From positions 179,255-243,254 of the forward strand of contig JAGVAE010000002.1 in NCBI GenBank assembly GCA_020060565.1: a stretch of 64,000 bases of DNA. Reading direction: 5' to 3'. Below the pieces are notes generated by a model that worked only from the letters and a program-made list of their open reading frames with translations, ran no database searches and was not told the DNA's origin. Source of the DNA: Candidatus Woesebacteria bacterium. GTDB taxonomy: Bacteria; Patescibacteriota; Microgenomatia; UBA8517. The position numbers were made by a program, and so were the translations under genes. This document shows, one piece after another, positions 2 to 47,672 of this stretch. Numbering within the stretch: the first letter of the stretch is position 1; each line of letters starts with the position of its first letter.

Positions 2-1009
2 CTTGAAAAAGAACAGATTTTTTTTGAAGGACGTGGGGGGGATGTTCCTTTTATTTCAGTTTCTGCTAGGAATAATACGGGACTAACCGAACTCATTGAA
101 ATGTTAATTCTCATGGCTGAGGTTATAGACCTTAAAGGAGATCCAGAGGCTAACTTAGAGGCAGTTGTTATTGAATCAAATAAAGAAAAGATGGGAACTG
201 TGGCTACTATAGTTGTAAGAAATGGAAGTATAAAAGTTGGAGAGACTATTTTTGCAGAAGAGGTTGAATGTAAAGTGCGTGGAATTTTCAATGATAAAGG
301 TGTTGGGGTAAAAGAAGTTTTGCCGGGTTTCCCTGCCCGCATTATTGGTTTTAGTGAGACTCCTCCAGTTGGAGCTTTAGTTCTAAAGGAGCCCCATAAA
401 GCTGAGGTGGAAGTTGTTAAGCCTAAAAACATTTTTGATTTAAGAAGACTTTCCGACGATGAGATTCCAGTAATTATTAAAGCCAGTAATGCGGGAGCAC
501 TTGAGGCTATTATTGCCGCTCTTCCAGCAAAAGTAGTTGTAGTTGATAGCGGAGTTGGGGAAATTACAAGTAGTGACATCATAAGTGCCAAAACAGGTAA
601 CGCCTACATTTTTGCATTTGGAACAAAAATCCCAAATGATATAGCCCACCTTGCAGAAGCAGAAAAAATTAAAATTGCTAGGTTCGACATTATATATGAA
701 CTTCTGCAACATGTTGAAGAAATAATCAAAAAAGGAAAAGTGGAAGAATTGGGACGAGCGGAAGTAATAGCGATTTTCCCCTTTAATGACAAAAAAGTTG
801 CAGGGAGCAAAGTTGTAAGTGGAAAAATTTCAAAAGGAGATCGTTTAGTACTTATGCGAGGAGAAAAAGAAGTAGGGAAAGCTAAAGCAATTTCCATCAG
901 AAAAGTAAAAGCTGAAGTTACCTCAGTTGGTCAATCTGAGGAGTTTGGAGTGATCGTTGAACCCCAGCTTGATTTTGCAGTCGGAGACGTGATAGTATCC
1001 ACTCGCTAG
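2..1009 (+). CDS. infB: Translation initiation factor IF-2, C-terminal part (5' end lies outside the window)
   Basis: The reading frame is open from base 2. The translation (…FISVSARNNTGLTELIEMLILMAEVIDLKGDPEANLEAVVIESNKEKMGTVATIVVRNGSIKVGE…) matches the IF-2 G-domain end and the domain II/C-terminal beta-barrels. Confidence 0.85.
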   Translation, partial: LEKEQIFFEGRGGDVPFISVSARNNTGLTELIEMLILMAEVIDLKGDPEANLEAVVIESNKEKMGTVATIVVRNGSIKVGETIFAEEVECKVRGIFNDKGVGVKEVLPGFPARIIGFSETPPVGALVLKEPHKAEVEVVKPKNIFDLRRLSDDEIPVIIKASNAGALEAIIAALPAKVVVVDSGVGEITSSDIISAKTGNAYIFAFGTKIPNDIAHLAEAEKIKIARFDIIYELLQHVEEIIKKGKVEELGRAEVIAIFPFNDKKVAGSKVVSGKISKGDRLVLMRGEKEVGKAKAISIRKVKAEVTSVGQSEEFGVIVEPQLDFAVGDVIVSTR

Positions 1010-1014
1010 TAAAA

Positions 1015-1959
1015 ATGGATAACAGTTTTGCTTCACTTATTAACTCTGCCACCTCTATTCTTGTCTTGCTGCCGACAAAACCAACTTTTGATGCTGTTGC
1101 AGCAGGGCTTTCACTTTATTTTTCTATTAAAGACAAGAAGGAAGCAAATATAAGTTGTCCCACCCCAATGATGGTTGGTTTTAATAGAATTATTGGAGTA
1201 GATAAAATTAGTTCCGAACTGGGGAATAAAAACTTAACAATAAAATTTAAAGGCTATGATGCTGCAAACATTGAAAAAGTTAGTTACGACATTATAAATG
1301 GTGAATTTAATTTAACAGTGGTTCCTAAAGCAGGGTTTACTTCTCCCCAGAAAGAACAAATGGATATAAGTTTTAGTGGTGTTTCCTCTGATCTTGTGAT
1401 TTTGATTGGAGGAGCAAATGACTCAGATTTCCCAATTCTTATGTCCAGTGAGCTTACGTCTGCCAAAGTGATACATATTGGAAACCGTGTACTTTCTTCA
1501 GACAGAGAGATAATGTCATTGGCTACCTCAGGGGCCACAACCAGTGAAATAATTGCAGGACTTATTAAGGTAAATGAAATGAGCATGGATCCTGATATTG
1601 CCACAAACTTAATAATGGGAATTGAGGAAGGAAGTAGTAACTTTACAAGTAGTGATGTTACTCCCGACACCTTTGAAACTTTTGCATACTTATTAAGAAG
1701 CGGAGGAAGAAGACAACCCAAAGTGAAATTGAGTCCCATGGGTTTTCCTCCAGGAGCTATTCCAACACAACCATTTAATAGACCAGTTCAGAAACAACAG
1801 GTTCAGCAAGTTGAACAAGTATTGGAAAAATTGGAACAAATTGAAAACAAAGAAGAAGTGGTTGAAAACCCTCCAGAAGATTGGCTTCAACCCAAGGTTT
1901 ACAAAGGGTCTAATCCTCCATCTGGGCAATCTGATACATTTAGTGAAAACAAAGGTTGA
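1015..1959 (+). CDS. Hypothetical protein; weak DHH/DHHA1 phosphoesterase (NrnA-like) resemblance with degenerate motifs and a Q/E-rich C-terminal tail
   Basis: 314-aa ORF immediately after infB. The pattern LLPTKPTFDAVAAGLSLY…VILIGGANDSD…LLRSGGRR sits where the DHH and GGGH motifs normally occur, but the catalytic residues are not conserved. The C-terminus is low-complexity (QKQQVQQVEQVLEKLEQIENKEE). Confidence 0.35.
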   Translation: MDNSFASLINSATSILVLLPTKPTFDAVAAGLSLYFSIKDKKEANISCPTPMMVGFNRIIGVDKISSELGNKNLTIKFKGYDAANIEKVSYDIINGEFNLTVVPKAGFTSPQKEQMDISFSGVSSDLVILIGGANDSDFPILMSSELTSAKVIHIGNRVLSSDREIMSLATSGATTSEIIAGLIKVNEMSMDPDIATNLIMGIEEGSSNFTSSDVTPDTFETFAYLLRSGGRRQPKVKLSPMGFPPGAIPTQPFNRPVQKQQVQQVEQVLEKLEQIENKEEVVENPPEDWLQPKVYKGSNPPSGQSDTFSENKG

Positions 1960-2034
1960 TACTGGAAAAAGGAGCTATTGTTTTTTTGAGAGAGAAGTAT
2001 AAAATCTGTCCATTCGAAAGCGAGGTGATTAGAA

Positions 2035-2319
2035 ATGACTGAAAAATACAGAATATATAAAACAGAGCCACAAGAAGTGTTAAACAGCCAGGAAAAGGTT
2101 GAAACGGCTATTTCTCAGGGAATAGATTGGGAAGCCTTCACGAGGCTAGATATGATTGAAGAGAATAAAATAACAGAATTTTGTCAGGGCTGTGACCATT
2201 TTGATGGTCAAGAAGTTCCTTGTAAAGTTGTCGGTTCTAATGACCAAGCGAGATATGCTAATAGAAAGTGGTGTGGCTACTCTCGTGTAAATGGAGTAAG
2301 GGTTGACAAGCAAGCTTGA
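2035..2319 (+). CDS. Small hypothetical protein with a CxxC…C…C cysteine cluster
   Basis: 94-aa ORF containing CQGCDH…C…C. No recognisable family. Confidence 0.45.
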   Translation: MTEKYRIYKTEPQEVLNSQEKVETAISQGIDWEAFTRLDMIEENKITEFCQGCDHFDGQEVPCKVVGSNDQARYANRKWCGYSRVNGVRVDKQA

Positions 2320-2328
2320 GTTTACTCT

Positions 2329-2357
2329 TTGAACTTATCCACAAAGTGTGGTATTAT
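2329..2357 (+). promoter_or_regulatory. Sigma70-like promoter upstream of rpsO (TTGAAC - 17 nt - TGgTATTAT, extended -10)
   Basis: TTGAAC at 2329-2334, a 17-nt spacer, then TG at 2349-2350 followed by TATTAT at 2352-2357. Confidence 0.45.
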
Positions 2358-2416
2358 ATTCAAGATGTTAACAAGGTTTGCTCTGAAATGAGCCTACTTT
2401 GTTCCACATGACTAAT

Positions 2417-2686
2417 ATGGCATTAGCCAAAGATTTAAAAGAAGACATAATAAAGAAGTTTGCAAGAGAAAAAGGCGACACAGGTTCTCCTGAGGTTCAG
2501 ATTGCTCTCCTTTCAAACAAAATTGAAAAGTTGGTTGGACACCTTAAGGAACATAAAAAAGATGTTCACAGTCGTCGCGGACTTCTTTCGATGGTAGCCA
2601 AAAGAAGAAGACTTCTTTCCTACCTTCATAGACGTGATGAAGAGCGCTACAAAAAGCTCCTCACTGAGCTAAAATTAGACAAATAA
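2417..2686 (+). CDS. rpsO: 30S ribosomal protein S15
   Basis: [32 protein letters not shown]…[25 protein letters not shown] is the canonical S15 sequence (89 aa from this ATG). The ORF track starts earlier, at a TTG at 2399. Confidence 0.9.
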
Positions 2687-2699
2687 CAAAAAGAAATAA

Positions 2700-5024
2700 A
2701 TGAAAAAGATTGAAAAGTCCATCGATTTAGGTGGACGAACATTGACCTTAACCACTGGGGAACTCGCAGAACAAGCAGCAGGATCTGTTATGGTGCGACA
2801 TGGAGATACTGTAGTTTTAGCCACTGTCACATCCGCCCCTCTTAAAATGGAGATGGATTATTTTCCATTAACCGTTGAGTATCAAGAAAAACTTTATGCA
2901 GGGGGTCGTATTAAAGGTAGCCGCTGGGTTAAACGTGAAGGTAGGCCAACCGATGAGGAAATTCTTTCGGCCCGTCTTATTGACCGTTCAATCCGCCCAC
3001 TTTTTCCTAAAACTTACAAAATGGAAGTTCAGGTTGTTGTCACAGTTCTTTCGGTGGATCTTGTAAATGACCCCTCAATTTTAGGTGCAATTGCAGCTTC
3101 TGCTGCAATCCATGTAAGTTCTCTTCCTTGGAAAGGTCCAGTTGCTCCCCTTACAGTAGGTTTGGTTGATGGCAAATACATGGTTAACCCTGTTTCAAAA
3201 GACCTTGAGGCCAGTCAAATGGATTTAACAGTATCTGCAACCAAAGAAGCGGTTTTAATGGTTGAGGCGGGAGCGAAGGAAGTCACAGAAGAACAGATAA
3301 TTGAAGGAATTGAGCTTGCCCAAAAAGAATCAAAAGCAGTTCTTAAGTTGATTGAGGATATGGCTACTGAAGTTGGAGTTAAAAGAGAAGTATACAAAGA
3401 AGAAAAACCTTCAGCTGAACTTGAAAGCCAAGTTAGGAAATTGGTTGGAGATAAGATAGCAGGGGTTGTTGAAAGCTTGGTTCATGTTGAAAATGGAAGA
3501 TCAACCCAACTACAAGATTTAGTAGACGCAGTTACAGATCAAGTTATGGAAGCTGATGCAAAGTGGGTTTTTGAAATTATTGATCACCTTAAGAAAGATT
3601 TTATTCGTGAACAGATTCTTAAAAAAGGAATAAGACTCGATGGCAGAAAATTAACTGAAATTCGTGATCTTTCTGCAGTTGTTGGCTACTTACCCAGAGT
3701 TCACGGATCAGTATTTTTTAAACGCGGTCAAACACATGTTCTTTCTGTTGCTACATTGGGAGCAGGAAAGATGGGGCAACTTTTGGAGTCTGCAGAAGGA
3801 GAAGTTGAAAAGCACTACATGCACCAATACAACATGCCTCCTTATGCTAGTGGAGAAACAGGTAGATTTGGTAATCCTGGAAGACGTGAGATAGGTCACG
3901 GCGCACTAGCAGAACGTTCCTTAATTCCAGTTATCCCTTCTCAGGAAGATTTTCCATATGCAATCCGAGTTGTTTCAGAAGTTATGAGCTCTAACGGTTC
4001 AACCTCAATGGCTTCCGTCTGTGGATCAACACTTTCCCTGATGGATGCGGGAGTTCCCATAAAAGCTCCTGTTGCTGGAATTGCAATGGGACTAATTATT
4101 GAAGACGAAAAGAATTTTGCGGTCTTAAGTGACATTATGGGTATTGAAGACTTCAATGGAGATATGGATTTTAAAGTTGCAGGCACCGATCGCGGAATAA
4201 CTGCACTTCAACTTGATGTTAAAACCCTTAACTTAACAAGTGAAATATTGAAAAAAGCTCTTGAACAATCAAAGGAAGCACGTGCCACTGTTATGAAGGT
4301 AATTACAGATACTCTTAAAAAACCAAGAGAGGTTGTTTCACAATTTGCGCCAAAGATAAAGCTTGTAAAAATTCCAGTCGACAAAATTGGTGAGTTTATT
4401 GGTCCAGGGGGAAAGAATGTCAAAAAACTCTCAGCTGACACTGGTTGTGAATTTGACACTGCCGATGACGGATCAGTTGCAATCAGTGGAATTGATCCAG
4501 AACAAATGGCAAAAGCAGTAAGTTACGTTGAAGGATTTGCAAAAGAAGTAGTAGCGGGTGAAATCTATGATGGAGAAGTAGTACGCATTATGCCTTTTGG
4601 AGCCTTTGTAAATATTTTGCCTGGTAAAGATGGAATGGTACATGTTAGTGATATGGGTAAAGAAGAGTTTGTTGCCGACGCTAATGACGTTGTTAAAATC
4701 GGAGACAAAATAAAAGTCAGAGTAGTAAGAATTGATGACATGGGTAGAATCAATCTTTCCATGAATATGGATCCTTCAAAAGATAAACCAAAAGAAGACA
4801 GACCACCAAGAAGTGGTGGTGGGTATAGAGGTGGAGACCGTGGAGGATTTTCGTCCCAAGGACGATCGTCTTTTGGTAGGAGTGGAGGAAGAAGTTTTGA
4901 TCGGGGAAGATCTTCATTTGGGGGTGGAAGAAGTAATTTTAACAGAGATGACAGGGGAGGAAGTGGTGGCCCACACTTCCCAACTTCAAGATTGGTTAGT
5001 GAAAAGAAAGACTTTGGAAGGTAA
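2700..5024 (+). CDS. pnp: Polynucleotide phosphorylase (PNPase) with an RGG/RS-rich C-terminal tail
   Basis: 774 aa. Two RNase PH domains are present (…FFKRGQTHVLSVATLG…, …GSTSMASVCGSTLSLMDAGVPI…), then KH and S1 domains, then about 80 aa of RGG-rich low complexity. Confidence 0.95.
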   Translation: MKKIEKSIDLGGRTLTLTTGELAEQAAGSVMVRHGDTVVLATVTSAPLKMEMDYFPLTVEYQEKLYAGGRIKGSRWVKREGRPTDEEILSARLIDRSIRPLFPKTYKMEVQVVVTVLSVDLVNDPSILGAIAASAAIHVSSLPWKGPVAPLTVGLVDGKYMVNPVSKDLEASQMDLTVSATKEAVLMVEAGAKEVTEEQIIEGIELAQKESKAVLKLIEDMATEVGVKREVYKEEKPSAELESQVRKLVGDKIAGVVESLVHVENGRSTQLQDLVDAVTDQVMEADAKWVFEIIDHLKKDFIREQILKKGIRLDGRKLTEIRDLSAVVGYLPRVHGSVFFKRGQTHVLSVATLGAGKMGQLLESAEGEVEKHYMHQYNMPPYASGETGRFGNPGRREIGHGALAERSLIPVIPSQEDFPYAIRVVSEVMSSNGSTSMASVCGSTLSLMDAGVPIKAPVAGIAMGLIIEDEKNFAVLSDIMGIEDFNGDMDFKVAGTDRGITALQLDVKTLNLTSEILKKALEQSKEARATVMKVITDTLKKPREVVSQFAPKIKLVKIPVDKIGEFIGPGGKNVKKLSADTGCEFDTADDGSVAISGIDPEQMAKAVSYVEGFAKEVVAGEIYDGEVVRIMPFGAFVNILPGKDGMVHVSDMGKEEFVADANDVVKIGDKIKVRVVRIDDMGRINLSMNMDPSKDKPKEDRPPRSGGGYRGGDRGGFSSQGRSSFGRSGGRSFDRGRSSFGGGRSNFNRDDRGGSGGPHFPTSRLVSEKKDFGR

Positions 5025-6140: not shown

Positions 6141-6674
6141 ATGAAATGGGTAGGAATAAGTGGTGGATGGAGAAAAATTAATACAGAAATTGAGAATGCT
6201 GTACGATCTGCAGTTTCTTCAATAATGATGCGAGGAGATGGGATAGTTTCGGGTGGTGCTCTTAATGTTGATTATATTTCGTTAGATGAGGCTTTAAAAT
6301 TTGATTCTAAAGCAAAAAGAATAAAAATTTTTCTTCCAACCACACTTGAAAAATATGTAAAACATTTTCGAAAACATGCAAGACTGGGGGATATTTCTCT
6401 AAAACAAGCAGAGGATTTAATTGAACAACTTACCGATTTGAAAGCAACCAACCCGGAAGCCTTAATAGAAAACCAGGACACAGACTTCACTGAGGAAAAC
6501 AAAAAAGAAAAATATTATGAACGAAATTCAAAAGTGGTAGGTGTATCTGATGAGCTTGTTTCATTTCGTATTCATACAAATGTAAGCGAGGGTTTGGGAA
6601 CCGCGGATACAGTAGAAAAAGCAAAGAAAAAGGGAATTCCAGTATATGAAAACGATTATATTTTGAAAGATTGA
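6141..6674 (+). CDS. Minimal DprA/Smf-like SLOG-superfamily Rossmann protein
   Basis: 177 aa. GISGGWR…DGIVSGGALNVDYISLDEAL resembles the DprA GSR…VSGLARGID…AL motif. RIKIFLPT and YYERNSKVVGVSDELVSFRIHTNVSEGLGTADTVEKAKKKGIPVY resemble the DprA C-terminal half of the Rossmann fold. The SAM and DML1 domains are absent. Confidence 0.5.
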   Translation: MKWVGISGGWRKINTEIENAVRSAVSSIMMRGDGIVSGGALNVDYISLDEALKFDSKAKRIKIFLPTTLEKYVKHFRKHARLGDISLKQAEDLIEQLTDLKATNPEALIENQDTDFTEENKKEKYYERNSKVVGVSDELVSFRIHTNVSEGLGTADTVEKAKKKGIPVYENDYILKD

Positions 6675-6688
6675 TTTATCCTTAAAAA

Positions 6689-7156
6689 GTGAAAATATTA
6701 ATAATTTCAGATTCCCACGGACATATAGCCAATCTCAAGCAGGTCTTGGAGATTGGAAAAAAAGCCGGAGTCAAAGCCATTATTCACTGTGGAGATTGGG
6801 ATAATCTTGAATCATTCCGTGCTGCACAAACTTTTGAACTTCCTATTTATTCTGTTTTGGGAAATGCGGACATAGACTCCAATTTGGAAGAAGCCTTACG
6901 GTTTGAGTGCAAAAAATACGATTCATATTTACTTGAACTTGAATTTGAAGGCAAAAAAATAGCGGTAGTTCATCGTGCAGATTTGAAAAATGAAAAACTG
7001 TACGGCTATAAAATCGTTTTTAGTGGGCACTATCATCCTAAAGAAGAAAAAATTGTTAACTGGACTAAATTTGTCCGCCCTGGGGCTCTAATTAATGGGA
7101 TTAACTTTGCAGTATATGAAACCGTGTCTGGTACAATTGAGTTTGTAAACGAATGA
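6689..7156 (+). CDS. YfcE/MJ0936-type metallophosphoesterase
   Basis: MKILIISDSHGH…HCGDWDN…GNADID…GHYH are the calcineurin-like phosphoesterase motifs in a 155-aa protein. Confidence 0.8.
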   Translation: MKILIISDSHGHIANLKQVLEIGKKAGVKAIIHCGDWDNLESFRAAQTFELPIYSVLGNADIDSNLEEALRFECKKYDSYLLELEFEGKKIAVVHRADLKNEKLYGYKIVFSGHYHPKEEKIVNWTKFVRPGALINGINFAVYETVSGTIEFVNE

Positions 7157-7770
7157 GTAAATACGAGGAGCTTCACAAGTTAAAAGAAGAGATGGAAAAA
7201 GACGAGAGCCTTCCTCTTAAAAAAGGTGCTACAAAATTAGTTTTTGGGGTGGGCAATACCGAAGCTAAAATTGTTTGTGTGGGAGAGGGGCCTGGGAGGA
7301 CGGAAGACCAACGGGGAATACCATTTGTTGGTCAGGCGGGAAAGCTTCTCGATAAATTATTTCCTCTGGCAGGTTTAGAACGGAAAGAAGTATTCATAAC
7401 CAATATTGTTCACCACAGACCTCCGGAAAACAGGGACCCTCTTCCTGAAGAAATCTTAGCTTATGGAAAATATCTCGACAAAATTATAGAAATAATAAAA
7501 CCCAAAGTGATTTTAACTTTAGGTAGGTTTTCCATGGCAAAGTTTTTACCAAATGTTTTTATCTCGTCCGTTCACGGCAAGAGATACGAAGTATTAGTGG
7601 GAGGTCGCAGTACTACAATTATTCCCATGTATCACCCTGCAGCTTCACTTAGAAACGGAAATGTTTTAGCTCAGGAAAAATTGGATTTTAAAAACCTAAA
7701 AAATATATTGGCCGAGCTTTCAAAACCAAAAGAGAATATAATTGAGGCAGAACAAACAAGTTTAATTTAA
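7153..7770 (+). CDS. Uracil-DNA glycosylase, family 4-like
   Basis: Motif A is GEGPGRTEDQRGIPFVGQAGKLL and motif B is HPAASLRN. The genes overlap by 4 nt (ATGA). Confidence 0.8.
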   Translation: MSKYEELHKLKEEMEKDESLPLKKGATKLVFGVGNTEAKIVCVGEGPGRTEDQRGIPFVGQAGKLLDKLFPLAGLERKEVFITNIVHHRPPENRDPLPEEILAYGKYLDKIIEIIKPKVILTLGRFSMAKFLPNVFISSVHGKRYEVLVGGRSTTIIPMYHPAASLRNGNVLAQEKLDFKNLKNILAELSKPKENIIEAEQTSLI

Positions 7771-14783: not shown

Positions 14784-16984
14784 ACCTCAAAGATTTTTTG
14801 ACAAGTCGCGAGTCGCCACCAGAACTTTACTGGTCACTTGTTGTTGAAAAAGGTTGGGTACAGGCGGGTATTTGGTATATAAATGAGTCTTCTGCGGAAG
14901 TAATTAACATTAGCCCCAGCGCTGCTTGGGAAGTTGAGGGAGAGTTAATTGGAGCCTGTGATGCGGTACTTTCTTCTTGTGTAAGTAAACTTCCAGAAAA
15001 CTATACTGAGCCAAGTAAAACTGTTTTTGGAGTTAGTTCTTCTTGGGTGAAAGAAGGAGAAATAACCGATGAATATTTGGCAATGATTAAGACGGTCTGT
15101 ACTGATTTATCTCTAACTCCTGTAGGTTTTGTAGTTTTACCAGAGGCAATTGCTCATTTATATAAGTCGGAAGAAGGGTCTCCCTTGAGTGCGGTTGTTA
15201 TTGGATTGAGTCCTGAAGAACTGGAAATATCGGTTTTTAATTTGGGTAATCTTATTGGTACCACATCTGTTGCCAGAAGTGTTTCGATTATTGAAGATGT
15301 TACAGAAGGGTTATCTCGTTTTGAAGGAGCCTCTCCGCTTCCCTCTCGAATGATTGTTTTTGATGGTAAGGAAGGAGAGTTGGAGGAAGCGAAAGAAGAA
15401 TTAATGAAAGCCACGTGGGAAGGAAATGAAAAAATGAAATTTTTACATACCCCTAAAGCCGAGACACTTGAAAGCAGTAAAAAAGTTTTGGCTACTTGTT
15501 TAGCTGGGGCAGCTGAGATTGGAAATGTAACAGAGGTCTTTTCTAAAGAAGAACCAATAGGGGAAGAAACATATCCACCTGAGGCTGAAATTAAAAACGT
15601 GGTAGAACCCGATGAAGAAACAAGTGCAGAGAAGCTTGGATTTTCAATTAATGAAGATGTCACAAGTAATCAAAGTCCAGTTTCTGGGCATATATCATTA
15701 AACTCACCCATCACACCACCAGTTTTACCGATAGCCCAACCCCAGCAAAAAGTAAACCCCCAACATCAAAAATTTGGTGTGGGGGTAAAAAATTTATTCC
15801 ATACTTTTTCGTCGAAGTTCAAAATTGGCGGTCCAAAAATTTCTTCGCAGGGAAATAAAAAATCTTTGAAGTTAATTTTAATAATTGCAGTTGTTTTAAT
15901 TGTTGGGATTGGAGCTTATTCGTGGTTTGTTCCTAAAGCAACAATAACAATCTTTGTTGCACCGAAGCCATTTCAACAGCAGGTTAGTATTTCCTTTAAT
16001 ACGCAAGGCGTGTTTGATGAATCAAAAGCCATTCTCCCCGCACAAATTATTACTTCACAAGCATCGGGGGACAAGACAAAATCCACGACTGGTGCTAAGT
16101 TAGTTGGAGATAAAGCCACAGGAAGTGTTCAAATTGCCAATGGAAATACAAGCTCAATAAAATTAGCAACAGGAACAGTTTTAACATCAACTTCAGGACT
16201 TAAATTTATAACAAATTCTGAAGCTTCCATTTCTGGACAGTTATTACCTGGTTCCCCGGGAACTGCAACATTAGAAGTAACTGCAGGGGATATTGGTGCC
16301 CAGTACAATTTAGCAAAAGGAGAAGTGTTTAAAGTTGGAGTATTTGAAAAATCATTGGTTGCAGCAACTTCACAAACAGATTTTTCAGGAGGAAGTAGTC
16401 AACAAATTGCAGCCGTTTCTGAAGAAGATCAGGAAAATTTAGAGACTGATCTAAAATCTGAACTTTCCAGCAAGGTTATAAATGATTTGGAAAGTAAGGC
16501 AAGTGAAGATCAACTTTTTGTCGATGATTTAGCTGAATTTGAAACTACGTCGAAGAATTTTGACCACAAGGTCGGTGAAGTAGCCGAAACCCTAAAACTT
16601 ACATCGGAGATTAATGCTACTACAGTATTGGTTGATAGGGAAAAACTTCAAAACTATGTTGCAAACATTCTTAAAGATAAAATTCCACAAGGTCACGCAT
16701 TGCGCAATAACCAAATTAAATTCAAATTTACATTTATTAGTAAAGAAGGAGAAAATTATATTTACACAATCAATATAAGTGCTAATTTTTTACCCATGAC
16801 AAATTCTGAAGAGATTATTAGTAAAATATCGGGTAAAAGTGTTTCATCTGCTACTGAATTTTTATCTTCCGTACCTGGATATACTCGTGCTGAAATAGCA
16901 CTAAAGAATAAACTTCTTGGTCCATTCAAGACTCTGCCACACGTAAAAGATAATATTACAATAGAAATTGCGGCAGATCAGTGA
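14780..16984 (+). CDS. Membrane protein: a degenerate actin-like (FtsA/PilM-like) cytoplasmic domain, an acidic linker, one TM segment and a large beta-rich extracytoplasmic domain
   Basis: 734 aa. The N-terminal ~210 aa follow an ASKHA-fold pattern (…FGVSSSWV…LSLTPVGFVVLPEAIAHLY…AVVIGLSPEELEISVFNLGNLIGTTSV…). The TM segment is LKLILIIAVVLIVGIGAYSWFV. The ~350-aa ectodomain is rich in T/S/G beta-strand repeats. Confidence 0.55.
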   Translation: MNLKDFLTSRESPPELYWSLVVEKGWVQAGIWYINESSAEVINISPSAAWEVEGELIGACDAVLSSCVSKLPENYTEPSKTVFGVSSSWVKEGEITDEYLAMIKTVCTDLSLTPVGFVVLPEAIAHLYKSEEGSPLSAVVIGLSPEELEISVFNLGNLIGTTSVARSVSIIEDVTEGLSRFEGASPLPSRMIVFDGKEGELEEAKEELMKATWEGNEKMKFLHTPKAETLESSKKVLATCLAGAAEIGNVTEVFSKEEPIGEETYPPEAEIKNVVEPDEETSAEKLGFSINEDVTSNQSPVSGHISLNSPITPPVLPIAQPQQKVNPQHQKFGVGVKNLFHTFSSKFKIGGPKISSQGNKKSLKLILIIAVVLIVGIGAYSWFVPKATITIFVAPKPFQQQVSISFNTQGVFDESKAILPAQIITSQASGDKTKSTTGAKLVGDKATGSVQIANGNTSSIKLATGTVLTSTSGLKFITNSEASISGQLLPGSPGTATLEVTAGDIGAQYNLAKGEVFKVGVFEKSLVAATSQTDFSGGSSQQIAAVSEEDQENLETDLKSELSSKVINDLESKASEDQLFVDDLAEFETTSKNFDHKVGEVAETLKLTSEINATTVLVDREKLQNYVANILKDKIPQGHALRNNQIKFKFTFISKEGENYIYTINISANFLPMTNSEEIISKISGKSVSSATEFLSSVPGYTRAEIALKNKLLGPFKTLPHVKDNITIEIAADQ

Positions 16985-17655
16985 ATTTCACAATGAATCA
17001 AAAAAATATTTTACGTGTAGCAGCTTTAATTTCGGCAATTTCGGGAATTGTAATTTTGATCGGAGTAATCTATCCAATTGTTTCATACGATGAGACTTAT
17101 GGGAAAAATTTTTCAGAACTTGTTTCCCCCCTAAGTGAAAATCCAATAAATCAATCCGAAAATGACTTTACTAGAGCTAGTAATTGGTTTGTAGGCGGAG
17201 CAAAGTCGTCTGATTTTAATGCTGCAAAAGTTGAGCACTTTACAATCAGTATTCCTGCTTTAAAAATAGATCATGCAACAGTAACAATAGGAGGAGAAGA
17301 CTTAAATGAAAGCATTATTCAATATCCAGGAACAGCTCTTCCTGGTAGGCCAGGTAATACGGCAATTTTTGGACATTCAATTTTACCAATCTTCTATAAT
17401 CCCAAAAACTATATTTCCATTTTTTCACTTTTACCTACTCTTAAAAAAGATGATGAGGTTTTTATAGATTACGATGGTGTATCGTATAAATATAAAGTCG
17501 AAACCATGTTTGAAGTAATGCCAACAGATATACAAGTACTTGATCAGGATTATTCTGATTCTTTTGTGACTCTTGTAACTTGCGTACCACCAGGCCATCC
17601 CAACGATCCTAAACGTCTAATAGTTCGTGCTAGGATTGTTCCACCTACAAACTAA
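16981..17655 (+). CDS. Sortase family transpeptidase
   Basis: An N-terminal TM anchor; IFGHS (the catalytic His region); TLVTCVPPG (the TLxTC catalytic Cys motif); a conserved Arg in LIVRARI. Confidence 0.75.
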   Translation: MNFTMNQKNILRVAALISAISGIVILIGVIYPIVSYDETYGKNFSELVSPLSENPINQSENDFTRASNWFVGGAKSSDFNAAKVEHFTISIPALKIDHATVTIGGEDLNESIIQYPGTALPGRPGNTAIFGHSILPIFYNPKNYISIFSLLPTLKKDDEVFIDYDGVSYKYKVETMFEVMPTDIQVLDQDYSDSFVTLVTCVPPGHPNDPKRLIVRARIVPPTN

Positions 17656-18267: not shown

Positions 18268-19125
18268 ATGAAAAAGCTAGTATTACTACCCTTTTTATTT
18301 ATTATTGTTGGAGTCATTGTGTTTATTTGGTTTCTGAAAAACGTCGAACCAGTTTCTACTCAAATAAACTATGTTAATTTCAGAGTTATTTCTGGATCAA
18401 GTGCTACACAGATAGGTTCAAATTTATATAAAGAGGGCTTAATCAGAAATCCACTTGCTTTTAAAATCTATGTACAGTTTTCTGGAATTTCTGATAATAT
18501 ACAGGCTGGGGACTATAGACTCTCTTCAAGCTTTAATCTTTTTCAAATAGTTTCTCAATTATCCAAAAACCCTCTAGAAGTAAAAGTTACAATTCCAGAA
18601 GGTTTTAATAGAATAGAGATTGCAACCAAATTTGCAAAAAGTCTAGATCAGGGCCAATCGTTTATTGATATATTTTTAAACGAATCGGTGGGGGACGAAG
18701 GATATCTTTTTCCTGATACTTATCTTGTGTCCAATAATGCAACCCCAGGAGCTATTATTGCCAAGATGAAATCCAATTTTGACACTCGAACAGTGGGTAT
18801 GGAATTAACTCGTGATCAGGTTATATTAGCCTCAATTATTGAAAAAGAAACAAAAAGTGTAGAAGAAAGACCTATTGTTGCAGGCATACTCACCAATAGA
18901 TTAAAAGTGGGAATGGCCCTTCAGGTCGATGTTGCGCCAATTACATACAAAGAGAGGGGGTATCCGAAAGATCCTATTGCAAATCCAGGGTTGGTTTCAC
19001 TTAAAGCTGCAATAAGTCCTACCAAGACTGATTATTGGTATTATCTTCATGATCCATCTGGATTGATTCACTATGCTAAAACATTAGATGAGCAAAACAT
19101 AAACATTCAAAAATATTTACGATAA
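18268..19125 (+). CDS. mltG: Endolytic murein transglycosylase MltG (YceG family)
   Basis: An N-terminal TM segment, then VTIPEGFNRIEIA, LASIIEKETK and a YceG-like C-terminus. Confidence 0.85.
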   Translation: MKKLVLLPFLFIIVGVIVFIWFLKNVEPVSTQINYVNFRVISGSSATQIGSNLYKEGLIRNPLAFKIYVQFSGISDNIQAGDYRLSSSFNLFQIVSQLSKNPLEVKVTIPEGFNRIEIATKFAKSLDQGQSFIDIFLNESVGDEGYLFPDTYLVSNNATPGAIIAKMKSNFDTRTVGMELTRDQVILASIIEKETKSVEERPIVAGILTNRLKVGMALQVDVAPITYKERGYPKDPIANPGLVSLKAAISPTKTDYWYYLHDPSGLIHYAKTLDEQNINIQKYLR

Positions 19126-43034: not shown

Positions 43035-43448
43035 ATGATCAAATTAAACAAAGTTGTTACTAAGTCAAAGAAAAGAGTAGGACGAGGAATGGGAAGTGGA
43101 AAAGGATCCCATACGGTAGGACGTGGCCAAAAAGGACAAAAATCAAATACTGACATCCACATTCTTTTTGAAGGACTTAAGATGAAGAAATCTTTCCTCA
43201 AAAGGCTTCCCTTAATGAGGGGGAAAGGAAAGTTTCATGGTAAGGGTAAACCAGTAACACTTAATTTGAGTGATTTGGAAAGCTTACCAACAGGATCAGT
43301 TATTACAGTAGAATTATTAGTTAAATCAAAGTTGGTTGATGCCAAGGAGGCAAAAACATTTGGAGTTAAGATTTTGAGTAATGGCAAAACTACTAAAAAA
43401 TTCACCTTCGAAGTCCCTACCTCAAAATCTGTTCAATCTTCAAAATAA
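43035..43448 (+). CDS. rplO: 50S ribosomal protein L15 (no L30 gene precedes it)
   Basis: MIKLNKVVTKSKKRVGRGMGSGKGSHTVGRGQKGQKS. Confidence 0.9.
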   Translation: MIKLNKVVTKSKKRVGRGMGSGKGSHTVGRGQKGQKSNTDIHILFEGLKMKKSFLKRLPLMRGKGKFHGKGKPVTLNLSDLESLPTGSVITVELLVKSKLVDAKEAKTFGVKILSNGKTTKKFTFEVPTSKSVQSSK

Positions 43449-43503: not shown

Positions 43504-44169
43504 TTGGATTGTGATACAGTAAAGTATATGGCTTCTTATGAGGGAGTTATTAAGGCTAGGATTGTTGAGGTTAGATTTGCTACAGCAGGAAAGATTGTGA
43601 CAGTTAAAAAAGGGGTTGGAGACAAAGTTGCCAAATGGGAATTAATTGCCTCACTTGATCGAAAAATGCTTCAGACAGAACTTGATAGTCAACTTGCAGA
43701 TTTTGAAAAAGTCAGGGCTGAGTTTGAAATTTTTAATCAAAAAAATCCTGATCCCCAAAGTGCAATTGATAAATATTTAATAACTGAAAAACAAGCGGCT
43801 TTGAATATTTCTGTTAAGGATGTGGAAATTGCAAAAGCCAGACTTGATCAGTGTGATTTATTTTCCCCAGTTACAGGCCTCATTCTTGATGACAGTGGAA
43901 TTGTGGTGGGAATAAATGTGACTCCAGCTGGGTCTGCAATTAAAATAGTGGATACCTCTTCATATTACTTTGAGTTTGAGATTGAACAAAAAGATATTCC
44001 ATTTTTTAGTGAAGTTAAAGAAGGAAAAGTAGAGTTTCCTGGAATTGGGATGGAGACGGTGGGAAAGTCTAGCGGGATTATTGCGAATGGCAAGAACTTT
44101 TATGTCAGGGTTTGTATTCCTGATAATCGTGGGATTCTTCTTGGCTTAAATGGCAAAGCAAACTTCTAA
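43504..44169 (+). CDS. HlyD/membrane-fusion-protein-like fragment (biotin-lipoyl plus beta-barrel; no TM or coiled coil)
   Basis: GVIKARIVEVRFATAGKIVTVKKGVGDKVAKWELIASLD…VKDVEIAKARLDQCDLFSPVTGLI follows the periplasmic-adaptor hairpin-closing motif. An alternative start is the ATG at 43528. Confidence 0.5.
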   Translation: MDCDTVKYMASYEGVIKARIVEVRFATAGKIVTVKKGVGDKVAKWELIASLDRKMLQTELDSQLADFEKVRAEFEIFNQKNPDPQSAIDKYLITEKQAALNISVKDVEIAKARLDQCDLFSPVTGLILDDSGIVVGINVTPAGSAIKIVDTSSYYFEFEIEQKDIPFFSEVKEGKVEFPGIGMETVGKSSGIIANGKNFYVRVCIPDNRGILLGLNGKANF

Positions 44170-44827
44170 AAAATTTAGTTGGAAAAAAGCTGCACTTTCC
44201 CTGGCAGCTGTAGGAATAGTTGCTGGAAGTGCTACCGTTATCAAACGTGAGGTAGATCCTGAAGAGAAAGTTATTGAGGTTATTGATGGGGATACTTTCA
44301 GGATTTCAAATAGACAGACTATTAGGTTCTATTCTGTGGATGCTCCTGAACTAGGGAATTGTTATGGGCAGGAAGCAAAGGAAGCATTAACTAAAAAAAT
44401 TCTAGGGAAAAAGGTAACAATAAAAAGTCCAAGAACGGATTATTACAAAAGGGTGCAAGCTTATGTATATTTGGATGGAGAATTTATATATGAGTATATG
44501 GTTAAAAATGGATTTGCGTCTGAACACGGTGAAGGAACTCCTGAAACAGATATTGTTAGAGTCGCGAATATTTTTGCTAAAGAAAACAAACTTGGTATAT
44601 ATTCTGAAGAATGCTCTCCATCTATTCCTAAAAATAAAGTCTGCAATATTAAGGGAAACGTTACCTATGATGATGGTAAAAAGGAATATACGATTCCTGG
44701 TTGCCGTAATTATCCTCAAACTATCGTTGAGAGATTTAGGGGAGAAGATTGGTTTTGTAGTGAAAGTGAAGCCAAAGCGGCAGGTTTTGTCAAATCCTCA
44801 AACTGCCCAGGGGTTTCTTCTTTCTAA
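44150..44827 (+). CDS. Membrane-anchored thermonuclease (SNase/micrococcal-nuclease homolog) with a Cys-containing C-terminal module
   Basis: An N-terminal signal anchor (AALSLAAVGIVAGSA); VIDGDTFRI…IRFYSVDAPE (the SNase Ca-site/active-site motifs); and a C-terminal CNIKGN…YTIPGCRNY…FCSESEAKAAGF. Confidence 0.75.
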   Translation: MAKQTSKKFSWKKAALSLAAVGIVAGSATVIKREVDPEEKVIEVIDGDTFRISNRQTIRFYSVDAPELGNCYGQEAKEALTKKILGKKVTIKSPRTDYYKRVQAYVYLDGEFIYEYMVKNGFASEHGEGTPETDIVRVANIFAKENKLGIYSEECSPSIPKNKVCNIKGNVTYDDGKKEYTIPGCRNYPQTIVERFRGEDWFCSESEAKAAGFVKSSNCPGVSSF

Positions 44828-45214
44828 ACGTTTTCTTTCTATCACACTTTCAATTACCCCAAGAGCATGGAGGTATGACTTGTCTTCTAATTTTTTTAAT
44901 TCATCTCTAGTACTATTGATTTCACCTGCTTCAATATTTGGTGCCATATCACATAGCCTACAAACCATGGCATCAAAATTATCTTTGATTGCAGCTTGAA
45001 CAATATTTACCCTATCTCGAAGAGGCACTAATTGAAAAGCATGTGTGAGTAGTTTTTCTCTTTTCCCGTCGCCATAAATGACAGAAGTCATGTAATTATT
45101 TATAAACTTCAATGGATTCTCCGTTTCGATCTGTGCTATTTTGACCATAATTGTCTCAAGAATTGGATGATCGGCAAAGTCCTTTTGTGTCAGTTGTCTA
45201 TCTTTCATATTCAA
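44798..45214 (-). CDS. Hypothetical protein (antisense to its neighbours; convergent overlap with the nuclease gene)
   Basis: 138-aa ORF with no recognisable motifs. Confidence 0.4.
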   Translation of the reverse strand: MNMKDRQLTQKDFADHPILETIMVKIAQIETENPLKFINNYMTSVIYGDGKREKLLTHAFQLVPLRDRVNIVQAAIKDNFDAMVCRLCDMAPNIEAGEINSTRDELKKLEDKSYLHALGVIESVIERKRLERRNPWAV

Positions 45215-45262
45215 TTTTGCTGGATTATATCACATAGACCCTCTAATTTTTCTGAATTTTGT

Positions 45263-45727
45263 ATGGTTTTTGATATACTTCTTTTGATGTCAGATGAAAA
45301 ATTTACACTAAGAGCTGCTGTTTATTTAATTTTAATCAAAGATGGTAAAACACTTTTTTCAAGAAGATTTAATACTGGTTGGATGGATGGAAAATACAGT
45401 CTTATAGCTGGACACTTAGATGGAAACGAAAAAGTTTCTGATGCAATGATCCGAGAAGCGATGGAGGAAGCGGGAATTAAAGTTGAAAAAGAAGATTTGA
45501 AACCCGTAAAAGTACTTCACAGGAATTCTAAAGAACGGGAATATATAGATTTCTTTTTTACTACAGAAAAATGGGAAGGGGAACCATTCATTAGAGAGCC
45601 AAATAAATGTGATGACATGAGATGGTTTCCTCTTACCTCTCTCCCTGAAAATACTTTACCGCATGTTAAAAATGTTATTGAGAATTATGATGATGGCGTT
45701 CCATTTATTGAGTCTGGTTGGGAATAG
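45263..45727 (+). CDS. NUDIX hydrolase
   Basis: The Nudix box is GHLDGNEKVSDAMIREAMEEAGI. An alternative start is the ATG at 45287; the track start at 45167 is probably too far upstream. Confidence 0.75.
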   Translation: MVFDILLLMSDEKFTLRAAVYLILIKDGKTLFSRRFNTGWMDGKYSLIAGHLDGNEKVSDAMIREAMEEAGIKVEKEDLKPVKVLHRNSKEREYIDFFFTTEKWEGEPFIREPNKCDDMRWFPLTSLPENTLPHVKNVIENYDDGVPFIESGWE

Positions 45728-45794: not shown

Positions 45795-47078
45795 ATGCTT
45801 AGTAAAATATGGCAGTTTTTAGTTAAATCAGTTAAGACTCCTTCTATCAGGAAGAAGCTTATTATTACTGGGATTATCCTTATTGTTTTTAGACTTGCTG
45901 CTCACATTCCTGCAGCTGGTATTGATAGAACCACTCTAGCTGCTCTTTTTGCAGGAAGTCCACTTCTGTCACTACTTGATGTATTTTCTGGTGGAACTCT
46001 GGCCAACTTTTCCATTCTTGCTTTGGGACTTAACCCTTATATTAATGCCTCTATTGCCTTTCAGCTTTTGGGACATGTAGTGCCAAGTTTGGAAGCTTTG
46101 CAAAAAGAAGGAGAATATGGGCAAGAAAAAATTAACCAATATACACGCCTTTTGACAGTCCCTCTGGCTGCAATGCAGGCTTTTGGTATGTATGCTCTTT
46201 TAAAGGGTCAAAATATTATTTCCAATTTAGGACCAATTGAGCTTCTTTCTCTTGTTATTACCATGACTGCAGGAACTGTATTTGCTGTTTGGTTGGGGGA
46301 ACTAATTAGTGAATACGGATTCAAAAATGGAGTTTCACTACTTATTTTTACTGGAATTGTTGCACGTCTTCCTATTGTTTTTGGACAGTCAGCGACAACA
46401 TTGGGTTCCCAAGATGTTTTGAAAGTGGTAATTTTCCTTGGGGTCGCAATTTTAATTGTAGGAGCAGTTATCTTCATTAGTGAAGCTGCGAGACATATTC
46501 CTATTCATTATGCAAAAAGAAGAACTGAAAGTGGATTGGGGGCAACTTCATATCTTCCCTTGCGCTTAAATCAGGCGGGAGTTATTCCTATTATTTTTGC
46601 AGTTTCCTTGGTTCTTATGCCTTCTCTTTTGGGGCAGTTTTTGGCAAATGTTCCCAATGCTCAAATTGCTGGTTTTGCCAGAGGAATAAGTACTGCGTTT
46701 GATCCTCAGGGCTTGGTATATAACATAGTTTATTTCTTCTTGGTATTTGGTTTTACCTATTTTTATACAGCTGTGGTATTTAATCCCGAAAAAATTGCAG
46801 AGAACCTGCAAAAAGGTGGAGGGTTTGTGCCAGGAATAAGACCTGGAAAAGAAACCGAAAAACACCTTTCCCATGTTCTTTCGCGCTTAACAATGGTTGG
46901 TGGAGTTTTCTTGGGACTCGTTGCTGTTCTTCCCTCGTTTTTTAGTAGTGCTATTGGAGCATCCAACTTAGCAATTGGAGGAACTAGTATTTTGATTGTT
47001 GTTTCAGTTGCTCTTGAGATGATTAGGGAGATGGAGGGGGAACTGGTAATGGGAAGATATGACAGGTTGATTAGATAA
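45795..47078 (+). CDS. secY: Preprotein translocase subunit SecY
   Basis: 427 aa with 10 TM segments; …KKLIITGIILIVFRLAAHIPAAGID…. Confidence 0.95.
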   Translation: MLSKIWQFLVKSVKTPSIRKKLIITGIILIVFRLAAHIPAAGIDRTTLAALFAGSPLLSLLDVFSGGTLANFSILALGLNPYINASIAFQLLGHVVPSLEALQKEGEYGQEKINQYTRLLTVPLAAMQAFGMYALLKGQNIISNLGPIELLSLVITMTAGTVFAVWLGELISEYGFKNGVSLLIFTGIVARLPIVFGQSATTLGSQDVLKVVIFLGVAILIVGAVIFISEAARHIPIHYAKRRTESGLGATSYLPLRLNQAGVIPIIFAVSLVLMPSLLGQFLANVPNAQIAGFARGISTAFDPQGLVYNIVYFFLVFGFTYFYTAVVFNPEKIAENLQKGGGFVPGIRPGKETEKHLSHVLSRLTMVGGVFLGLVAVLPSFFSSAIGASNLAIGGTSILIVVSVALEMIREMEGELVMGRYDRLIR

Positions 47079-47126: not shown

Positions 47127-47672
47127 TTGGCGCAAATGTCAAAAGATCGGCCACAACCACTTTCAACAGAACAAAGAATTGAGAATGCCAGGTTAGAAGC
47201 ACTTAATTTAACTCTATGTCTTTCCCATATGGTTGGTCAGTATTGTGAAAGATCAAAGGAAAATGGTTGGATACCTCCTAGATCAATTAAGTGGGACGGA
47301 AATTCGAGCTATGGAAAGAAAATGGTTTTTCTTGTAGATGGACAAGAAATACACGGTCATTTTGAGTCCGAGGAGGAATTCGGAAAGATAGTTAAAAATC
47401 ATAAAGAGACCGTTTATAGGCCATATAACCCAAAAGCCGACGCTGATTGGTTTGATTTAATTCCAACAGATTATTCAAGTGTTTGGGTATCAAAGCAATG
47501 TCAACAAATGGATAATGGACGTTTTGCTTTGGCGGGAAGGACTGAAGGGGAAGAATTTGTAGTAGATATATTTCCAGATAAGAAAATGCAAATATCGATT
47601 ATATTACTTGGCTTAAATGAAATACAATCGGATATTGTGGCCTCTATAAAGGCTTCTAATATGATAAGTTGA
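47127..47672 (+). CDS. Hypothetical protein inserted between secY and adk
   Basis: 181 aa with no recognisable family. TTGACT…TATAAA promoter-like elements lie at 47098-47124. Confidence 0.45.
   Translation: MAQMSKDRPQPLSTEQRIENARLEALNLTLCLSHMVGQYCERSKENGWIPPRSIKWDGNSSYGKKMVFLVDGQEIHGHFESEEEFGKIVKNHKETVYRPYNPKADADWFDLIPTDYSSVWVSKQCQQMDNGRFALAGRTEGEEFVVDIFPDKKMQISIILLGLNEIQSDIVASIKASNMIS

Follow-up and report, generated by a model that had tools for sequence, protein, structure and literature searches.

An anchor-less membrane-fusion-protein core and a predicted surface nuclease in the rplO–secY gap of a Candidatus Woesebacteria genome

The junction between rplO and secY is normally tight and invariant. 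In the DNA analysed here (the window: 64,000 nucleotides (nt) of contig JAGVAE010000002.1, positions 179,255 to 243,254, Candidatus Woesebacteria bacterium assembly GCA_020060565.1), the list of open reading frames (ORFs) places four of them between rplO (43035-43448) and secY (45795-47078), which raises the question of what these genes are and whether any of them belong together. An earlier reading made without database searches (the sequence-only reading) had listed a HlyD-like adaptor fragment, a membrane-anchored nuclease, an antisense gene and a NUDIX hydrolase, and all of these ORFs are present as described. The analysis centres on the first two, namely the adaptor-like protein, here termed HlyDs, and the nuclease, which combines an SNase domain with a C-terminal domain named sunset. 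On balance, we lean slightly towards the view that they form a two-gene module in a gene-turnover pocket, in which a surface nuclease would serve salvage and would be linked to a cytoplasmic HlyDs. Their features are listed below (coordinates refer to the window, aa to amino acids; loci in relatives are denoted by L and a number).

43504-44169, plus strand: HlyDs as the mechanical ORF, starting at TTG 43504
43528..44169, plus strand: HlyDs, corrected gene (213 aa), an anchor-less membrane-fusion-protein paralogue
43663..43848, plus strand: alpha-helical hairpin of HlyDs, aa 46-107 (DSSP helices 46-72 and 79-107, pLDDT ~90)
44150..44169, plus strand: 20-nt overlap of the HlyDs and SNase genes; same overlap in L006, L012, L029, L050 and L062
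44150..44827, plus strand: SNase-sunset nuclease (225 aa; Pfam SNase and NF051437)
44189..44242, plus strand: N-terminal hydrophobic segment of the nuclease, aa 14-31, following a Lys-rich tail (Kyte-Doolittle 19-residue maximum 1.74 at position 13)
44261..44614, plus strand: SNase catalytic domain, aa 38-155 (column counts taken in 120 homologues)
44627..44809, plus strand: sunset domain (NF051437), aa 160-220, a four-Cys module (C165, C185, C203, C219)

The adaptor-like protein and its fold

The start codon of HlyDs is almost certainly ATG 43528, only 79 nt after the rplO stop codon, as judged from about 120 homologues of 210-218 aa that align from the corresponding Met; database gene calls give 213 aa (JGI) or 221 aa (NCBI). 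The homologues were found in metagenome-assembled genomes of Woese-, Ames-, Shapiro- and Chisholmbacteria (Microgenomates). The supposed fragment is in fact a member of a full-length, conserved 213-aa family. Proteins identical to HlyDs and to the nuclease are recorded from a 438-kb contig. Its similarity to membrane-fusion proteins in profile searches is significant: HlyDs matched TIGR01730 with E=7e-13, at 48.1 bits and thus below the curated cutoff of 94.9, and the family profile matched MacA in the PDB (4dk1, E=1e-9, aligned to MacA 32-196) as well as EmrA, ZneB and AcrA. Other curated cutoffs were likewise not reached (HlyD_3, 20.3 vs 22.2; HlyD_D23, 16.8 vs 30). Homologues carry the precomputed barrel-sandwich hybrid domains PF25973 and PF25917; PADLOC and PHROGs gave no useful match for HlyDs.

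The AlphaFold2 (AF2) model of HlyDs is confident and compact (pLDDT 87) and consists of a beta-barrel, a lipoyl (barrel-sandwich hybrid) domain and an alpha-hairpin, with barrel strands at aa 3-9 and 137-212. Foldseek retrieved MexA crystal chains comprising barrel, lipoyl and hairpin domains (1t5e, TMq 0.86; 1vf7, 0.87) together with AcrA, MacA and pneumococcal Spr0693 at TM-scores of 0.8-0.87, which fall to only ~0.5 when normalised to the full-length targets. The hairpin, whose helices align with those of MexA and AcrA in Foldseek, is the best-conserved part of the family and contains the invariant residues Q49, L52, L56, L92, V96, V99, E100 and K103. The sequence-only reading had denied the protein both a transmembrane (TM) segment and a hairpin; the former absence is borne out, as no hydrophobic 19-residue window >1.3 occurs in the first 45 aa of any of 121 family members, whereas the latter is contradicted by the helices at aa 46-107.

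HlyDs thus has, like MacA, AcrA, MexA and EmrA (TIGR01730; 4dk1, 1t5e, 2f1m and 4tko), a barrel and a lipoyl domain split by an alpha-hairpin. Its chain stops after the barrel at aa 213 and has no membrane-proximal domain, a trait it shares with EmrA (PMC4446572); this domain is present in RND and ABC adaptors. HlyDs differs from the four proteins, which are anchored by a TM helix or lipobox, in having neither (all described adaptors are anchored by a TM helix or lipid; PMC4446572), and also in its length of only 213 aa (canonical adaptors have 340-400 aa), in lacking an adjacent transporter and in having a nuclease as its recurrent neighbour. The genomic context was surveyed in 55 non-redundant HlyDs loci, collected from species-representative genomes, metagenomes and exact-protein look-ups, 50 of which include at least 800 nt downstream. 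No transporter family (RND, ABC or MFS) recurs within 3 kb of HlyDs across these loci, and the sole MFS gene seen nearby, in L062, lies on the opposite strand at this one locus.

Locus L033 encodes a canonical TM-anchored, 343-aa MacA-like adaptor with a MacB-type ATPase and permease (427-3342), located 3.5 kb upstream of the HlyDs-nuclease pair on the same contig. Over the core, the MacA-like protein shares 29% identity with HlyDs, and since both occur on one contig, HlyDs is a distinct paralogue. HlyDs is a derivative of the adaptor fold that we do not class as a periplasmic adaptor, because it falls below the curated cutoffs and two defining features are missing. In the absence of a signal peptide or anchor, it is probably located in the cytoplasm. 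The idea that a surface beta-barrel adaptor works together with a surface nuclease is therefore not upheld, there being no export signal in the 121 family members.

The nuclease and its C-terminal domain

The catalytic domain of the nuclease matched Pfam SNase (PF00565) with 60.9 bits against a cutoff of 21 and has the OB-fold. Conservation among the 120 homologues is complete for D46, D48 and R101 (100% each) and high for R59 (99%), D64 (90%) and E67 (88%). Going by the motifs VIDGDT and R..VDAPE and by R101, we take D48, R59, D64, E67 and R101 to be the counterparts of D21, R35, D40, E43 and R87 of S. aureus SNase; the Ca2+-type catalytic residues are intact. Conserved cysteines in or at the domain are C71 and C155. 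The proposed membrane anchoring agrees with the hydrophobic segment at aa 14-31, and a hydrophobic N-terminus (>=1.6, at the same place) is present in 106 of the 120 homologues. The segment is predicted to be a type-II anchor or uncleaved signal, and the positive-inside rule would put the nuclease on the outer face of the membrane. Compared with S. aureus Nuc/NucI and EcnA (PF00565; NF047694, NF047969), the protein scores far below the equivalog cutoffs (36 vs 250; 33 vs 180), has in addition the sunset domain and, within its catalytic part, a conserved pair of cysteines, and is probably kept on the membrane rather than released.

Comparison of the window nuclease (44150-44827) with those of L062, L006, L034 and L014 revealed a mosaic. 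In its tail and TM segment (aa 1-35) it shares 80-83% identity with the alleles of the closest HlyDs relatives, but over the catalytic domain (aa ~45-165) it is closest, at 83-96%, to alleles of a lineage whose HlyDs is ~40% divergent. This pattern indicates that the predicted exposed domain has been exchanged by recombination between lineages.

The extra Cys-containing C-terminal module noticed earlier is present and proved to be already catalogued as the sunset domain: it matched NCBIfam NF051437 at aa 167-216 of 225 (30.2 bits vs a cutoff of 27). The region was modelled by AF2 with a pLDDT of 94-98, and its four cysteines are kept in 117-120 of 120 sequences. A profile search returned 4250 cluster representatives, and all of the 147 best matches fit NF051437, with SNase also present in 100 of these 147. 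The domain is nearly always C-terminal and at times occurs in 2-4 tandem copies. NCBIfam holds sunset variants of the ribosomal proteins L4, L17, L20 and S2 and of ArfC; here the domain is fused to a predicted exported nuclease and not to a ribosomal protein. Together with a weak Ada-Zn-like motif, the variants of L4, L17, L20 and S2 suggest that sunset may bind nucleic acid and tether the nuclease to it. The match to the Ada Zn-binding domain (PF02805) was sub-threshold, with three of 36 sequences matching (best E 0.038), and a tandem-sunset protein gave E 9e-4, below the cutoff; hhalign of sunset with the E. coli Ada N-terminus gave a probability of 20%. By sequence, no significant match to solved structures was obtained, and a fold search with the nuclease model was dominated by the SNase domain and uninformative on the sunset fold. 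The literature search yielded no published account of the domain, and the window contains no further copy.

A sunset-only ORF of 59 aa, with no TM segment and no SNase domain, was observed in L013 (8666-8845), 30 nt after a second HlyDs copy and with two NUDIX genes just upstream; the other HlyDs of the same genome (L008) has a nuclease 3.3 kb off.

Pairing of the two genes and turnover in the gap

Among the 50 loci with sufficient downstream sequence, an SNase-sunset gene lies within 4 kb of HlyDs in 27 (54%) and within 150 nt in 18; the span searched makes up at most a few percent of a genome under 1 Mb. The pairing is far above chance and non-random, and no other gene family recurs beside HlyDs in the 55 loci. 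Its conservation elsewhere is real yet facultative, with L061 and L064 each retaining only one of the two genes. The overlap of the adaptor-like and nuclease genes, which had been noticed before, measures 20 nt (44150-44169); in addition to the loci listed above, it is indicated in L031 and L060 by the tblastn offset. It is retained exactly at nuclease identities of 48-62% and likely reflects translational coupling.

The two genes may be co-directional, either with the 20-nt overlap or separated by gaps or by inserted genes (DUF3800 in L063); at other loci the nuclease lies upstream (L015), or the genes converge with a 4-nt overlap. Orientation differs even between the sister loci L025 and L027, and at L012, L030, L033 and L050 the pair is found outside ribosomal operons. 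Because the pair survives both orientation change and relocation, selection on the linkage can be argued, and this conserved adjacency is what points to a functional link between HlyDs and the nuclease; for the reading as a whole, we put the chances at a little above even.

Two sets of observations concern loci in which the arrangement is different. In L008 (6546-12567; HlyDs 61% identical), HlyDs lies ~1.1 kb after rplO and the nuclease 3.3 kb further on; the L15 match covers residues 1-70 only, there is no secY in the 8 kb downstream of HlyDs, and the spc operon seems broken. Nuclease genes without HlyDs were located in L064 (4001-4699), L065 (4001-4708) and L066 (4001-4663), with a NUDIX gene ~2.5 kb downstream of the nuclease in the latter two. 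As a speculation, the proximity of nuclease genes to ribosomal operons is perhaps how the sunset fusions of L17, L4, L20 and S2 arose.

In relatives with HlyDs at least 75% identical and sequenced flanks, HlyDs is always located between rplO and secY or, on short contigs, directly upstream of secY. The remaining cargo varies as follows.

L006 gap: four unknown genes
L062: ahead of the pair, six genes, an antisense NUDIX among them; behind the pair, an MFS gene in antisense orientation; presence of secY on the contig not confirmed
L063 gap: GNAT, DUF3800 and Fic
L031 gap: a cupin-like gene, NUDIX and a deoxyribosyltransferase-like gene
L061 gap: NUDIX and deoxyribosyltransferase, in the order rplO, HlyDs, NUDIX, deoxyribosyltransferase, secY

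Since HlyDs is constant and the other cargo varies across relatives, the gap is best described as an old, clade-wide gene-turnover pocket and not as a recent one-off insertion. The remaining genes of the gap and its flanks in the window are listed below.

43035..43448, plus strand: rplO (ribosomal protein L15), flanking the gap on the left; identity of 90% to its counterpart in L006 (Pfam Ribosomal_L27A)
44798..45214, minus strand: antisense ORF (138-aa ORF, annotated as 136 aa), an orphan
45167-45727, plus strand: NUDIX gene as the mechanical ORF of the ORF list
45290..45727, plus strand: NUDIX hydrolase, corrected gene (145 aa), MutT-like and below equivalog cutoffs
45795..47078, plus strand: secY, right flank, 92% identical to secY of L006

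The GC content across the gap (0.33-0.38) is the same as in the flanks, with no compositional anomaly, and the genome is small, of low GC and of the type found in the candidate phyla radiation (CPR). The flanks contain no integrase, no tRNA and no meaningful direct or inverted repeats. A word-index search of 5.8 billion sequences with the antisense ORF returned only the ORF itself; it has no Pfam, PADLOC or PHROG match and only sub-threshold NCBIfam matches (E 0.03 and above), and its position is held by other genes in relatives. The purine skew is inverted over 44750-45250, that is, over this ORF, which fits a genuine minus-strand gene. A consensus scan for promoters and terminators found no enrichment over shuffles (7 promoter-like sites vs 14.8 expected). 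It was further observed that a divergent region of 75 nt (45215-45289) separates the orphan from NUDIX-secY; it must carry the secY promoter, because the orphan gene breaks read-through from rplO. By eye, an extended -10-like motif (TGaTATACT) is seen ~10 nt before the NUDIX ATG, a motif that the consensus scan did not flag.

The start of the NUDIX gene is placed at ATG 45290 by comparison with its orthologues in L031 and L061. It belongs to the NUDIX superfamily (Pfam, 60.9 bits vs 21.1) and contains the NUDIX box GX5EX7REX2EEXG (sequence GHLDGNEKVSDAMIREAMEEAG), with scores below the cutoffs of MutT equivalogs (NF008044, 53 vs 148; another, 37 vs 97.9), and is a predicted generic MutT-like hydrolase. 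Orthologues are present in L031 (81%), L065 and, apparently, given a matching NUDIX box, L061. NUDIX genes are weakly associated with HlyDs (7 of 55 loci) and do recur near the nuclease; nucleotide-handling genes (NUDIX, nucleoside deoxyribosyltransferase) are recurrent around the pair, a point in favour of the sequence-only reading. Elsewhere in the window, the UDG-superfamily gene was confirmed at 7153-7770, whereas the MazG-like gene named alongside it was not found among the 20 ORFs scanned.

A second small variable pocket lies between secY and adk and holds an ORF of 181 aa (47127-47672, plus strand), which has no family match and whose exact sequence is absent from a collection of 15 billion proteins. 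In relatives, this pocket contains a 223-aa and an antisense 94-aa ORF (L006) or an antisense 85-aa ORF (L063), or is empty (L061 and L064). The window also encodes a sortase (16981-17655), consistent with a Gram-positive-like envelope, and YceG/MltG (18268-19125); YceG immediately adjoins HlyDs in L001 and L010 and is ~3.7 kb off in L009.

Alternative explanations and implications

In the mechanism that we propose, HlyDs would have kept a MacA/AcrA-type core, lost the anchor or signal, the membrane-proximal domain and the transporter partner, and stayed in the cytoplasm. The nuclease, usually coupled to HlyDs translation through the 20-nt overlap, would be held by its N-terminal TM helix on the outward side of the membrane, where it would cut environmental or host DNA and RNA into oligo- and mononucleotides for salvage, as its fold, its topology and the intact catalytic residues suggest; the sunset domain would tether it to nucleic acid. 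The NUDIX enzyme here and the nucleoside deoxyribosyltransferase of relatives, both cytoplasmic, would be variable cargo with the same nucleotide theme. Surface scavenging of nucleic acids by the nuclease is plausible. More speculatively, HlyDs may escort or inhibit the nuclease within the cytoplasm until its Sec export, by analogy to NucA-Nin. Pairs of a secreted nuclease and a cytoplasmic inhibitor comprise NucA-Nin of B. subtilis, NucA-NuiA of Anabaena and barnase-barstar. The logic would be the same, an exported non-specific nuclease beside a small, signal-less and often co-translated partner, although HlyDs has no homology to known inhibitors, shows stronger conservation than the nuclease and is often present where the nuclease is not. 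We consider it unlikely that HlyDs represents the first membrane-fusion-protein core re-used in the cytoplasm, as an oligomeric, hairpin-bearing escort or inhibitor of a potentially self-toxic nuclease or as a factor handing the nuclease to SecY, the product of the neighbouring gene, and that the pair is an unrecognised nucleic-acid foraging module of Microgenomates.

Several results weigh against the proposed module. L061, whose HlyDs is 92% identical, carries it without a nuclease in the gap; L064 has the order rplO, three small ORFs, nuclease and secY with no HlyDs; and in L065 and L066 a nuclease follows rpoA-rplQ-rplM-rpsI without HlyDs. The existence of convergent arrangements rules out obligatory co-transcription. 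HlyDs evolves more slowly than the nuclease (mean distance 0.45 vs 0.54), the distance matrices and trees of the two agree only moderately (r=0.60), and the swapped-in ectodomain of the window nuclease stems from the lineage with a ~40% divergent HlyDs, so that the tight co-evolution of an inhibitor and its nuclease is not seen. Facultative pairing and discordant evolution count in particular against the escort or inhibitor step. The similarity behind nucleic-acid binding by sunset is weak, and the literature search found nothing on thermonucleases in Patescibacteria or on nucleases of Woesebacteria.

One alternative dispenses with a functional link altogether and explains the pairing by inherited synteny in small, slowly rearranging genomes and by a permissive, highly expressed spot near ribosomal operons. 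Each gene is found alone, HlyDs-less nuclease genes also lie beside ribosomal operons (L064-L066), the gene trees are partly discordant, and most convergent loci (L036, L039, L043, L044 and L051) form one clade in both trees, as expected from a single inversion. Inherited synteny does not readily explain why the other neighbours of HlyDs turn over completely in the 55 loci when the nuclease remains no further than 4 kb away in 54%, or why adjacency outlasts both the change of orientation between L025 and L027 and moves off ribosomal operons (L012, L030, L033 and L050), with the exact overlap kept at 48-62% nuclease identity; we therefore rate it as somewhat unlikely. The HlyD-like ORF could also be a decayed pseudogene, the remnant of an adaptor from a tripartite or ABC efflux system, with the inserted DNA as rearrangement junk, which would fit a protein ~130-190 aa shorter than canonical adaptors that scores below curated cutoffs and adjoins no transporter. 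This notion is barely credible: conservation effectively refutes it, as more than 120 homologues of the same length, with 50-92% identity and many invariant residues, span Woese-, Ames-, Shapiro- and Chisholmbacteria, and in the confident, compact AF2 model the first strand of the protein belongs to the barrel, leaving nothing missing upstream.

A different function for the nuclease would be natural transformation at a competence pilus or ComEC, in the manner of EndA or B. subtilis NucA, with HlyDs as a Nin-like inhibitor. The topology is that of membrane-anchored competence nucleases, the adjacent signal-less partner recalls nucA-nin of B. subtilis, and the window ORF 6141-6674 has a weak, sub-threshold match to DNA_processg_A (DprA family). 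We regard this role as quite unlikely, given that neither sequence nor fold relates the pair to EndA, NucA or Nin, that no competence genes lie near the pair at any locus, and that the genes recurring nearby encode nucleotide-salvage enzymes (NUDIX, deoxyribosyltransferase). SNase, moreover, leaves 3'-phosphate ends and degrades both DNA strands as well as RNA. Very improbable is the interpretation of the gap as a small defence or mobile island in which nuclease, NUDIX and orphan are anti-phage effectors. It could draw on the variable cargo of relatives (including Fic, DUF3800 and GNAT), on the mosaic nuclease ectodomain and on weak PADLOC matches (SNc+LTD candidate, E=1e-7; PDC-S07 NUDIX, E=9e-9); yet a nuclease predicted to face outward has no access to phage DNA inside the cell, neither HlyDs nor the orphan has a PADLOC match, and the gap shows neither integrase, tRNA and flanking repeats nor a composition different from that of its flanks.

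Both domains of the nuclease and the NUDIX gene are of known kinds; no earlier description of the anchor-less membrane-fusion-protein core family, or of its recurrent linkage to a predicted surface nuclease, emerged from the literature searched. CPR bacteria (Patescibacteria) are generally unable to make nucleotides de novo, and their route of acquisition is poorly defined. A conserved, predicted membrane-anchored nuclease that recombines between lineages and is found repeatedly in or beside ribosomal-protein operons, near NUDIX and deoxyribosyltransferase genes, offers a concrete candidate for the enzyme with which nucleic-acid foraging begins. The defining trait of membrane-fusion proteins is that they bridge envelope layers, and a conserved version without anchor or transporter would imply a role outside efflux. 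The rplO-secY junction, finally, can be a gene-turnover hotspot across a clade, which matters for synteny-based annotation and binning.

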